Source: Escherichia coli O157:H7
Lineage (GTDB): Bacteria; Pseudomonadota; Gammaproteobacteria; Enterobacterales; Enterobacteriaceae
Reading direction: 5' to 3' (one strand)
Length of the DNA: 64,000 nucleotides
Assembly (NCBI RefSeq): GCF_013167455.1
Contig: NZ_CP038328.1
In this document: positions 53,501 to 58,681 of the stretch, one piece after another
Layout of the letters: every line of letters begins with the position of its first letter
Numbering within the stretch: position 1 is the first letter of the stretch
Program-made: the position numbers

Positions 53501-56500
53501 CGCCTCGCTAAGTTTGCTTTCCAGCTCTTGCGGATGAGAGATCTGGATCCCGACGTGACCATAGGCTTCCGCCAGACGGACGAAGTCTGGTAAAGACTGC
53601 ATATAAGATTGTGAATGACGACCGGAATAGATCATGTCCTGCCACTGCTTCACCATCCCCAAATAGCGGTTATTAAGATTAACCACCAGCACCGGCAGTT
53701 CATATTGCAACGCTGTAGACAGTTCCTGAATGTTCATCTGAATACTGCCGTCGCCAGTGACGCAAACCACGGTTTCTTCTGGCAGCGCCATTTTGACGCC
53801 CAGTGCCGCAGGTAAACCAAAGCCCATAGTGCCGAGGCCACCGGAGTTGATCCAACGACGGGGTTTGTCGAATGGATAATAAAGCGCAGCAAACATCTGG
53901 TGCTGCCCGACATCGGACGTAACGTAAGCGCCCCCCTTCGTCAACCGCCAAAGAGTCTCGATCACCGCCTGCGGTTTAATCTTTTCACTGTGAGTGTCAT
54001 ATTTCAGGCACTGACGAGCGCGCCACTGTTCAATCTGCTGCCACCAGTCGCGGATCTCATCCAGCGGTTGATGGGCGGATTCTTGCGACAAGAGTTCAAG
54101 CATTTGTTCGAGGACCTGGCGAGCATCCCCCACAATCGGAATATCCGCAGTCACGGTTTTAGAAATGGAAGTAGGATCAATATCGATATGCAGAACAGTG
54201 GCATTTGGGCAGTACTTTGCCAGATTGTTAGTGGTGCGATCGTCAAAGCGGACACCGACAGCAAAAATCACATCCGCGTTATGCATCGTCATATTGGCTT
54301 CGTAGGTACCGTGCATTCCCAGCATGCCCAGTGCCTGACGATGCGTTGCCGGAAACGCTCCCAGCCCCATCAATGAGGAAACAACGGGCAGATTTAACGC
54401 CTCCACCGTTTCTTTCAGCTGTTGATGGCAGCCCGCCGTGATTGCCCCACCGCCTACGTAGACAACCGGTTTTTTTGCCGCCACCAGCGTTTGCAGAGCG
54501 CGCTTAATTTGCCCTTTATGTCCGGTAGTAGTGGGATTGTAAGAACGCATACTGACCGACTCCGGCCAGACATAGGGTAATTTGTTCGCCGGATTAAGAA
54601 TATCTTTCGGTAAATCAACGACCACTGGTCCTGGGCGACCACTTGCCGCCAGCCAGAAAGCCTTTTTCAGCACCTGCGGAATGTCTTCCGTTTGCTTAAC
54701 CAGAAAACTGTGTTTAACCACCGGTCGCGAAATCCCCACCATGTCGCACTCCTGAAAGGCATCGTAACCTATCAACGAGGTCGCTACCTGCCCGGAAAGG
54801 ACAACTAATGGAATGGAATCCATATAAGCGGTGGCGATGCCGGTAATCGCATTGGTCGCCCCTGGACCCGACGTTACCAGCACGACGCCGACTTCCCCGG
54901 TCGCGCGCGCCAGACCATCGGCCATATGCACTGCCGCCTGCTCATGACGAACTAAAACATGACCGATACCACCCACGGTATGCAATGCATCGTAAATATC
55001 AAGGACTGCGCCTCCGGGATAACCGAATACTTGTTTAACGCCCTGATCGATAAGCGATCGGACGACCATCTCGGCTCCAGACAACATCTCCATGGCCTGC
55101 CTCACTGTTTGACGGAAAAAATGTGTAAAACACATTAACCGTCCGATCTTGCTTAAGCAATTGGCAGCCAGAGACATAAACGCCGGGTAATAAGAATAAA
55201 CAGGAGGAAAGGTGAAAAGAAACGATAAAATCCTCCATTACGAAGGATAAAAATGATAATAAATCGGCTAAATCCCACCACTTACAGCAATTTCTCTATT
55301 TTTTTAATTAATCCTAAAATAGAGAGCCCACACATTCAGAATAAAATTCTACACTCAATAAAAAATGCAGAATAAACCAGACATTCATGTCTGACCTATT
55401 CTGCATTCAGTTAGCGTTTGCAAATTGAGACTAATTGCTCTTCCATCCACTGATGGCCTTTATCACGCCCGGCAGCTTCATGCCAGGAGAGATAACAGGT
55501 TCTGCTATTTAGTTTTAACGGCAGCGGTAATACCTGTAATTCTAAGGATTCAGCGAACTCTTCAGCCAGCCAACGCGGCGCAATAGCGACCAAATGCGTT
55601 TGCGACACCACGCTAAGTACGCTCATCATTGCCATGCCCTGATACGCGATACTGGCTTGCTTATCTACCGTGTCATACCAAGGTTGACTAAATGACGCGA
55701 AACGATCGAGCGAAACCGCCGCATGTTGTTCGTTATAAACATCATGTTTCAGTAACGGGCCCTTAATTGTTGGGTGATTTTTGCTGGCTACCAGCACCAT
55801 TTCATCTTTAAATAATGGCACGCTGGTAAATTCAGGACGATGGAAGTCTTCATAACTAATCACAAACTCCGTTTCCTGATAACGCAGCTGATGTTCAGTG
55901 TTCTGATTTAATGAAGACTTGAACATAACATGTATATTTGGCGCAATCTGCTCAATGTGATTATAAATCTGCGAGGTCAGAATACTGTCTAACGGGCTGC
56001 AAACACAAAGATGAAATACACGTTCACTGCTCGCGGGTTCAAAACCTGAACCAGGCAATTCATTTTGTACTAGTTGCAATGCCTGACGAACTGAACCAAA
56101 AAGTTGAAATGCGCGAGCAGTCGGTTGAATACCACGGCCATAACGAACAAAAAGCTCGTCATTAAACATCACCTTCAGGCGTGCAACAGCGTTACTGACC
56201 GCAGGTTGCGACATTCCCAGAACATGAGCAGCACGGGTAATGTTTTGCTCCTGCATCACGGCATCGAAAACGGTTAATAAGTTGAGATCGACCATGCGTA
56301 GCTGTGGCTTGCTGAACTCCGCCGTCTCTGGATGATCTGTTTGTACCTCTGGCATACTTAACTCCACTGTCACACTTAACTCCCTTTCCCTTATTGGAAT
56401 GCAGAGAAATAATCCTCGAGAATATGATTTATCATGCATATAAAATAAGAAAAAGGAAAATGAGTAAAATTAGGAAAACATAAAGATACGGGTTCTTATA

Positions 56501-58681
56501 AAAACAGAATCCATTGCCGTGGAAAGCGTCATTTACCACAGCATAATAATCCATAATGTTCTTGTTGCGTAAACAATCTAATCATAACTACCGCGAATAC
56601 TCAATCATCCACAAAATGGATTAAATGTGCTTTTTAATAATTTATTTATATATTTAATGCATTAATTCTTAACATTAATTGATCAATAATATTCACCAAA
56701 TCAATATCAAAAAATCCGCAAAACATATAATTCAATACAAATCATCAGGATAGGTTTTGCAACGCGTGCATTTTGTCCCCTTTTTCCTCGTGGATTAGAT
56801 GCAAAAATTTATTCTGAAATATGTCAACCGATGAAAAGCATCGGTAGTTAAGCAGAAATTAATATCGCTTGTTTTAACCACAGCAGCACAATTAGCTAAT
56901 CTTACGGATGCAGAACTCATGCTGGCGGGACGTTTTTATTGCGTCAGGGTTGACATCCGTTTTTGTATCCAGTAACTCTAAAAGCATATCGCATTCATCT
57001 GGAGCTGATTTAATGACTCACATCGTTCGCTTTATCGGTCTACTACTACTAAACGCATCTTCTTTGCGCGGTAGACGAGTGAGCGGCATCCAGCATTAAG
57101 CCAGCACGCAGTCAAACAAAAAACCCGCGCCATTGCGCGGGTTTTTTTATGCCCGAAGCGAGGCGCTCTAAAAGAGACAAGGACCCAAACCATGAGCCAG
57201 CAAGTCATTATTTTCGATACCACATTGCGCGACGGTGAACAGGCGTTACAGGCAAGCTTGAGTGTGAAAGAAAAACTGCAAATTGCGCTGGCCCTTGAGC
57301 GTATGGGTGTTGACGTGATGGAAGTCGGGTTCCCCGTCTCTTCGCCGGGTGATTTTGAATCAGTGCAAACCATCGCTCGCCAGGTTAAAAACAGCCGTGT
57401 ATGCGCGTTAGCTCGCTGCGTGGAGAAAGATATCGACGTGGCGGCCGAATCCCTGAAAGTCGCCGAAGCCTTCCGTATTCATACCTTTATTGCCACTTCG
57501 CCAATGCACATCGCCACCAAGCTGCGCAGCACGCTGGACGAGGTGATCGAACGCGCTATCTATATGGTGAAACGCGCCCGTAATTACACCGATGATGTTG
57601 AATTTTCTTGCGAAGATGCCGGGCGTACACCCATTGCCGATCTGGCGCGAGTGGTCGAAGCGGCGATTAATGCCGGTGCCACCACCATCAACATTCCGGA
57701 CACCGTGGGCTACACCATGCCGTTTGAGTTCGCCGGAATCATTAGCGGCCTGTATGAACGCGTGCCTAACATCGACAAAGCCATTATTTCCGTACATACC
57801 CACGACGATTTGGGCCTGGCGGTCGGCAACTCACTGGCGGCGGTACATGCCGGTGCACGCCAGGTGGAAGGTGCAATGAACGGGATCGGCGAGCGTGCCG
57901 GTAACTGTTCCCTGGAAGAAGTCATCATGGCGATTAAAGTTCGTAAGGATATTCTCAACGTCCACACCGCCATTAATCACCAGGAGATATGGCGCACCAG
58001 CCAGTTAGTTAGCCAGATTTGTAATATGCCGATCCCGGCAAACAAAGCCATTGTTGGCAGCGGCGCATTCGCACACTCCTCCGGTATCCACCAGGATGGC
58101 GTGCTGAAAAACCGCGAAAACTACGAAATCATGACACCAGAATCTATTGGTCTGAACCAAATCCAGCTGAATCTGACCTCTCGTTCGGGGCGTGCGGCGG
58201 TGAAACATCGCATGGATGAGATGGGGTATAAAGAAAGTGAATATAATTTAGACAATTTGTACGACGCCTTCCTCAAGCTGGCGGACAAAAAAGGTCAGGT
58301 GTTTGATTACGATCTGGAGGCGCTGGCCTTCATCGGTAAGCAGCAAGAAGAGCCGGAGCATTTCCGTCTGGATTACTTCAGCGTGCAGTCTGGCTCTAAC
58401 GATATCGCCACCGCCGCCGTCAAACTGGCCTGCGGCGAAGAAGTCAAAGCAGAAGCCGCCAACGGTAACGGTCCGGTCGATGCCGTCTATCAGGCGATTA
58501 ACCGCATCACTGACTATAACGTCGAACTGGTGAAATACAGCCTGACCGCCAAAGGTCACGGTAAAGATGCGCTGGGTCAGGTGGATATTGTCGCCAACTA
58601 CAACGGTCGCCGCTTCCACGGCGTCGGCCTGGCCACCGATATTGTCGAGTCCTCCGCCAAAGCCATGGTGCACGTACTTAA

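Follow-up and report, generated by a model that had tools for sequence, protein, structure and literature searches.

The AT-rich spacer between leuO and leuL in Escherichia coli O157:H7 is a copy of the known enterobacterial leuO-leuLABCD divergent control region

A stretch of 64,000 nucleotides of Escherichia coli O157:H7 DNA (RefSeq assembly GCF_013167455.1, contig NZ_CP038328.1; hereafter the window, whose positions are used throughout) contains a long AT-rich non-coding spacer between the divergent genes leuO and leuL. What is this spacer, does its composition have a meaning, and which regulatory elements does it carry? An initial annotation of the window had described positions 56356-57012 as a 657-bp divergent leuO/leuLABCD control region, silenced by H-NS and not novel. 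Its coordinates are exact, and its identification of the locus is right by gene order, by a match to the Rfam Leu_leader family and by near-identity to E. coli K-12. It was also correct that the region is not new: the spacer is the O157:H7 copy of the already known and well-studied enterobacterial leuO-leuLABCD control region, and every element placed in it below has been published previously. A divergent control region organized in three zones, one for each promoter end and an AT-rich middle, is very probably the best explanation of this DNA. The spacer and its left flank are the following.

56356-57012, no strand: leuO-leuL divergent spacer, 657 bp, 33.2% GC
55411-56355, minus strand: leuO coding sequence (CDS) for a LysR-type regulator of 314 amino acids; left flank, outside the spacer

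Reading of the open reading frames (ORFs) and the RefSeq annotation define 56356-57012 as the exact 657-bp gap between leuO on the minus strand and leuL on the plus strand. Gene leuO starts with the codon complementary to 56353-56355, and the ATG of leuL occupies 57013-57015. An ATG at 56439 provides an in-frame upstream extension of leuO, kept in 2 of 77 non-Escherichia loci; this longer LeuO amino-terminus is not conserved and the annotated leuO start therefore stands. Genes leuA, leuB and leuC are found downstream of leuL, while leuO is followed by a 233-bp spacer and then by ilvI. The flanking genes, coding for LeuO, the leu leader peptide, LeuA/B/C and IlvI, have the same order as in K-12, and this gene order together with the near-identity to K-12 identifies the spacer as the orthologous leuO-leuLABCD divergent control region. 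The window corresponds, in reverse complement, to positions 82619-146618 of the O157:H7 PV15-279 record (NZ_AP018488.1), to which the spacer is 100% identical. The spacer was matched in 5399 of 5426 complete E. coli genomes and had no match in 27 of them. A few E. coli records have plasmid copies of the spacer (3 places) or of leuO (4 places), and two copies are present in some genomes.

The identity and boundaries of the region being defined, the next question is its composition. The GC content of the spacer (33.2%; 66.8% AT) is far below the 52.3% of the window: only 41 of the 63,344 segments of 657 bp reach this value or a lower one, and every one of them overlaps the spacer. The 100 bp with the lowest GC content of the whole 64 kb are also found here.

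56613-56712, no strand: AT-rich core, 16% GC, presumed H-NS nucleation tract (the role of H-NS is taken from the literature)

The longest run composed only of A and T in the window (28 nt, 56631-56658) lies within the spacer. Homopolymer tracts of A or T of at least four bases number 19 in the spacer versus 11 ± 3 in composition-matched shuffles (P ~0.01), and there is a weak AA/TT periodicity of ~10.8 bp (P ~0.004, uncorrected for the 11 periods tested). The AT contents of the spacer and of its core, set against that of the window, are those expected of an H-NS nucleation or silencing region. The wording “extremely AT-rich” used in the initial annotation fits the core and fits the spacer as a whole less well. 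The A/T tract placed there at 56620-56720 is real, the 70-mer quoted for it being located at 56639-56708, and by annotation the spacer is indeed the largest non-coding block of the window (657 bp versus 601 for cra-mraZ, 540 for aroP-pdhR and 354 for yacH-acnB).

Its composition is not unique in the window. The aroP-pdhR spacer (34.8% GC) and the 233-bp leuO-ilvI spacer (33.0% GC) are AT-rich too, as would be the case if AT-richness merely reflected relaxed constraints on composition in non-coding or horizontally acquired DNA, with no role in silencing. A comparison across the Enterobacteriaceae bears on this explanation. One LeuO-based scan yielded 80 loci from ~25 genera; 79 of them were usable and the alignment comprised 74 sequences. 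Upstream of leuO, all 79 usable loci have leuL and leuA in divergent orientation. Their spacers measure 632 bp in the median (605-660 bp for most of them), with a median GC content of 34.4% versus 52% in the flanking coding DNA. The minimum GC content over 100 bp has a median of 22% across the 80 spacers. In the alignment, sequence conservation is confined to blocks (56359-56375, 56420-56455, 56465-56485, 56883-56900 and, at the leuL promoter, 56946-56995), and the AT-rich core is only 37-55% identical to that of E. coli. The composition and length of the core are conserved across the family and its sequence is not.

Poor conservation of the core sequence is what neutral AT-richness would lead one to find, as is the higher variability of the spacer relative to the adjacent leuO coding sequence within E. 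coli, where identity to the O157 sequence is under 95% in 417 records for the spacer and in none for the leuO CDS. However, length and composition remain within a narrow band over ~25 genera despite this sequence turnover, which points to selection on composition. Furthermore, the locus belongs to the core genome, has conserved synteny, and is one at which published genetics and chromatin immunoprecipitation (ChIP) show the action of H-NS. We therefore regard a purely neutral origin of the AT-richness as very improbable. Maintenance of composition and length while the sequence turns over is expected of a tract read by a protein that recognizes AT-rich DNA and not a specific sequence. Throughout a bacterial family, the spacer appears to be selected for its composition and length and not for its sequence. 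One contig with a typical enterobacterial leuO-leuL locus, CACSKA010000010.1, is labelled Chryseobacterium sp. 18061; its locus is nearly the same as that of a Citrobacter assembly of the same project, and the CACSKA010000010.1 assembly is probably mislabelled or contaminated.

The size of the spacer could also be accounted for by an unannotated gene coding for a small protein or a small RNA. The spacer has several ORFs of 29-41 codons, and the frame at 56394-56483 is open in 24 of the 77 non-Escherichia loci. This frame overlaps the conserved promoter blocks, however, and its frequency is to be compared with the 67 of 77 found for leuL as a control; the other ORFs are kept in 0-4 of the 77 loci. 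None of these hidden ORFs was retained as conserved. Rfam finds only the Leu leader in the spacer, and no gene is annotated there in O157 or in K-12. We give almost no credence to a hidden gene, and the divergent control region remains the preferred reading of the spacer. Its elements are described below from the leucine operon end to the leuO end and then inward.

56950-56986, plus strand: leuLABCD promoter, a conserved block with a −35 TTGACA (56950-56955), a 17-bp spacer and a −10 TAACTC (56973-56978)
56999-57148, plus strand: leucine operon leader/attenuator RNA (Rfam RF00512), which starts within the spacer, extends beyond it and includes leuL (57013-57099)

The transcription start site (TSS) of leuL is the A at 56986, assigned from the homologous leuL promoter of Salmonella, whose TSS has been mapped (PMC10268841, Fig. 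S1). A scan for promoter and terminator consensus sequences returned one weak hit in total, fewer than in shuffled sequences, and missed the true leuL promoter because its −10 lacks the final T. The match to RF00512 (Leu_leader) at 56999-57148 scores 145.8 bits (gathering score 50; E 1.7e-33), and the leader peptide carries four consecutive Leu (LLLL). At this right end the σ70 promoter (TTGACA-17-TAACTC, TSS ~56986) would drive the leu leader, and attenuation at the four Leu codons would set the expression of leuABCD.

The left end holds three conserved blocks, all assigned to the leuO strand.

56359-56375, minus strand: conserved end of the leuO 5′ untranslated region with the Shine-Dalgarno sequence GGAG (complement of 56362-56365), from the alignment footprint and the sequence
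56420-56455, minus strand: conserved block GAATATGATTTATCATGCATATAAAATAAGAAAAAG, candidate proximal leuO core promoter region (P2), from the footprint, with a putative assignment
56465-56485, minus strand: conserved block, candidate BglJ-RcsB box, from the footprint and the fit to the core motif

Work on E. coli by the Schnetz group reported that H-NS and StpA repress both leuO promoters, P1 and P2 (PMC5025477, PMC3950696). P2 is the proximal promoter and lies ~70 bp downstream of the BglJ-RcsB site (PMC3950696), which is more than 100 bp away from the LeuO sites (PMC5025477, PMC3950696). The sequence TTTTCCTA at 56471-56478 on the minus strand fits the BglJ-RcsB core wwTTCykA. This motif occurs at chance frequency (29 matches in the window versus 27.8 expected) and is too degenerate to locate a site by itself; it was applied only jointly with conservation, and 56471-56478 is a candidate placement of the box. 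The blocks at 56420-56485 would thereby carry the proximal leuO promoter and the BglJ-RcsB activator box.

Between the two ends, the middle ~200-400 bp are AT-rich in every genus and free to change in sequence. This tract would load H-NS and StpA, which would spread from it and silence the leuO promoters. It also contains the sites relevant to LeuO itself.

56689-56707, no strand: LeuO site I core palindrome ATATTCA-CCAAA-TCAATAT (7-5-7), ATATTCACCAAATCAATAT, placed by its match to the cas palindrome
56521-56844, no strand: equivalent of the K-12 LeuO probe used in electrophoretic mobility shift assays (EMSA), placed with the primers of PMC12494820 Table EV1 (1 and 2 mismatches)

The palindrome at 56689-56707 agrees at 15 of 19 positions with the perfect palindrome ATATTCATACTGTGAATAT (ATATTCA-TACTG-TGAATAT) of the K-12 cas3-casA spacer, and a near-identical palindrome was described at cas site IIa and leuO site I (PMC6698644). 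Judged from that description, 56689-56707 has the organization of a LeuO operator, that is a 7-5-7 palindrome like cas site IIa with a T-N11-A layout. Its half-sites are kept at the same position, around a variable centre, in three other Escherichia lineages, a result equalled by no shuffle. The K-12 probe is bound by LeuO in EMSA and binding is increased by 2-isopropylmalate (PMC12494820). LeuO would bind the palindrome within the AT-rich tract, more so in the presence of this pathway intermediate, and may modulate silencing as well as its own expression. Another 7-5-7 palindrome, the perfect ACCGATGAAAAGCATCGGT at 56827-56845 (ACCGATG-AAAAG-CATCGGT), was rejected as a LeuO site: it is unlike the cas site and is imperfect in K-12, from which O157 differs locally by a single-nucleotide polymorphism (SNP) at 56840. 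Its search string was not found in the three other Escherichia lineages. It overlaps the forward primer of the published EMSA probe.

Does the AT-rich middle then act as the initial annotation proposed, that is as a tract silenced by H-NS which couples leuO, leuABCD and ilvIH through a supercoiling relay? The present analysis itself establishes the identity, boundaries, composition and conservation pattern of the spacer and places its sites at the level of sequence. Occupancy and silencing by H-NS, the promoters P1 and P2, activation by BglJ-RcsB, binding of LeuO and of MarA (see below) and the effect of supercoiling are taken here from the literature, and the function of each site in K-12 or Salmonella would presumably be the same in O157. 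Silencing finds its support in published work: besides repression by H-NS and StpA, H-NS was found at leuO in vivo in E. coli K-12 by ChIP on microarrays (ChIP-chip; PMC1636352) and a defined H-NS nucleation site is present upstream of leuO in Salmonella (PMC6797219). The layout required for a relay is also present, as ilvIH, leuO and leuLABCD have the divergent/tandem promoter arrangement. Negative supercoils generated by divergent transcription would loosen the H-NS complex and couple neighbouring promoters. For the coupling, gene arrangement and literature speak in favour of the initial annotation, with the qualifications that the relay was shown in Salmonella only and that the ilvIH promoter is located in the other spacer (55178-55410).

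Several observations weigh against this account. The published H-NS 10-mer tCGATAAATT is not enriched in the spacer, where its closest matches are two (at 56639 and 56677), each with 2 mismatches. The table of an in-vitro H-NS genomic SELEX (systematic evolution of ligands by exponential enrichment) study does not flag the leuL<>leuO spacer (PMC3946193). The promoter relay was worked out with the S. Typhimurium leu-500 promoter in topA strains (PMC4264507). Finally, the LeuO palindrome is not at a conserved position outside Escherichia, where the best matches are no better than those in shuffles; conservation of this palindrome across genera was not retained.

The particular background of the relay experiments leads to a different view of the coupling. 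In this view leuO and leuLABCD are linked mainly by a protein, LeuO acting as a LysR-type regulator with 2-isopropylmalate as co-inducer, and the relay is a side effect seen in special Salmonella strains (leu-500 and topA). The binding of LeuO to the central spacer, its increase by 2-isopropylmalate and the presence of a palindrome of the T-N11-A type agree with such a mechanism, and the authors of the binding study rank leuABCD as the most conserved LeuO target. On the other hand, induced divergent transcription from upstream counter-silences leuO and raises its expression more than 10-fold in otherwise wild-type Salmonella (PMC10981669), and according to a review a leuO mutant is not auxotrophic for leucine (PMC4264507). 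A mainly protein-based coupling is possible and, in our judgement, on the unlikely side. The supercoiling and LysR-type mechanisms are compatible and not exclusive, and both can be accommodated in the three-zone control region.

One conserved block of the spacer, between the AT-rich middle and the leuL promoter, calls for a further factor.

56886-56900, plus strand: marbox GCACAATTAGCTAAT, a MarA/SoxS/Rob site, assigned by identity to a published MarA site

The sequence CAGCACAATTAGCTAA (56884-56899) is nearly invariant in ~75 of 80 species and both of its flanks vary freely. The 15-mer at 56886-56900 is identical to the site gcacaattagctaat found by MarA ChIP and sequencing (ChIP-seq) in E. 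coli H10407 and is a marbox by its sequence. The H10407 site lies in leuL<>leuO and its in-vitro binding was scored +++ (PMC5684230, Table 1); in Salmonella the orthologous site binds MarA, Rob and SoxS (PMC10268841). The marbox is in forward orientation and centred ~93 bp upstream of the leuL TSS, so that it belongs neither to class I (reverse, 53-73 bp upstream) nor to class II (forward, 30-42 bp upstream). The Salmonella study likewise lists the leuL promoter under “other promoters”, outside both classes (PMC10268841), and a regulatory outcome at the leuL<>leuO marbox is not reported in the MarA/Rob/SoxS ChIP-seq studies (PMC5684230, PMC10268841).

In 59 of 73 species the marbox and the leuL −35 are separated by 64-65 bp. 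Three lineages have shorter separations, of 53, 54 or 56 bp, a reduction of about one helical turn, three events being too few to prove a constraint on helical phase. The near-invariance of the marbox over ~25 genera and this spacing pattern would be compatible with action of MarA/SoxS/Rob on the leuL promoter from a remote upstream position, and the marbox would in that case add an input from these regulators. They would be equally compatible with these factors forming a barrier between the leu promoter and the H-NS filament of the core, or contributing to the opening of leuO. That the marbox is a working stress input at leuO-leuL and not a bystander can be proposed only tentatively, and we lean towards doubting it. 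The initial annotation, whose interpretation of the region is otherwise supported, had left out the marbox together with the mapped LeuO sites and the BglJ-RcsB site.

Lrp was considered as the factor recognizing the block at 56884-56899 and rejected. The block fits the Lrp consensus at 13 of 15 positions and over the same extent, but matches to this consensus occur in the window at chance frequency (65 versus 65.3 expected). The Lrp SELEX peak lies elsewhere, at K-12 position 85,536 in the leuO-ilvI spacer, and a literal search of the block sequence led to the marbox. Landgraf, Boxer and Calvo (1999) reportedly did not find direct control of the leu promoter by Lrp. The best match of the window to the Lrp consensus is TAGAATTTTATTCTG (1 mismatch; 55337-55351), also in the leuO-ilvI spacer, in agreement with the SELEX peak and with the known control of ilvIH by Lrp.

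How far does the O157 spacer depart from that of K-12? The latter has 659 bp (NC_000913.3, 83709-84367) and the two differ at 23 of 659 alignment columns, by 21 substitutions and two single-base insertions/deletions. The comparison with K-12 for insertions/deletions in the AT tracts, suggested in the initial annotation, places one at either edge of the AT-rich core, following 56632 and 56708, respectively. No difference from K-12 affects the LeuO palindrome, the marbox or the leuL promoter. The SNP at 56472 concerns a position (k) at which the BglJ-RcsB-like core is degenerate, and the one at 56570 changes the −35 of a predicted leuO promoter from TTCGCA to TACGCA in O157. Around SNP 56792 the −35 of a predicted K-12 leuLABCD promoter reads TTGATT in K-12 and GTGGAT in O157. 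The promoters hit at 56570 and 56792 are RpoD SELEX predictions from K-12 and not the mapped promoters. The SNP at 56840 makes the local 7-5-7 palindrome described above perfect in O157. These O157-specific changes beside mapped sites are worth checking if strain differences in leuO expression ever appear. LeuO is said to have been tied to virulence regulation in enterohaemorrhagic E. coli by Takao et al. in 2014.

In one complete E. coli genome, BKQ37E, the insertion sequence (IS) IS1A is present in the spacer (1255-2022 of its locus). Its insertion point corresponds to window positions 56401-56409, 46-54 bp upstream of the leuO ATG, and is marked by a 9-bp target duplication GCAGAGAAA. With IS1A in this place, leuO is cut off from its conserved promoter blocks, and the effect could be either silencing of leuO or its expression from the IS.

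Three further features of the window were recorded. The aroP-pdhR spacer (18748-19287, 540 bp) ranks second in AT content among its long spacers, and GC falls to a minimum of 21% over 100 bp (18950-19049); a RamA site at aroP<>pdhR appears in a Salmonella ChIP-seq table. The window lacks the sugar exporter gene setA, which in K-12 has 1179 bp and lies between sgrT and leuD; in the O157:H7 annotation the sgrT-leuD gap is only 107 bp (61874-61980). The 45-nt yabR of the K-12 leuO-ilvI spacer corresponds to 55212-55250, which in the O157 record is only a 39-nt pseudogene marked “too short”.

A textbook case of H-NS silencing and of promoters coupled to their neighbours, the region has little importance as a discovery. 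Its value is that of a positive control, as a real and well-defined regulatory region was recognized from raw sequence. Among known systems, the closest is the orthologous K-12 leuL-leuO region, with the same flanking genes, promoter and Leu leader and an identical LeuO palindrome and marbox. The ilvIH-leuO-leuABCD relay of Salmonella Typhimurium has the same gene order, leuL promoter and marbox as O157; its spacer is AT-rich too and about equally long (645-655 bp for two subspecies of S. enterica). The Salmonella core shares with that of E. coli its composition alone (~37-55% identity) and the LeuO palindrome was not found at the E. coli position; the relay experiments were done in Salmonella and not in E. 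coli. Relative to the marbox promoters of the MarA/SoxS/Rob regulon, the leuO-leuL site has a sequence identical to that of a validated site, whereas its position and orientation are unlike those of classes I and II. The bgl, proU and cas promoter regions resemble the leuO spacer in having an AT-rich tract, repression by H-NS/StpA and relief by LeuO or BglJ-RcsB. Unlike regions of this type, the leuO spacer is core-genome DNA found throughout the family and not horizontally acquired, and the gene that is silenced encodes the anti-silencer.

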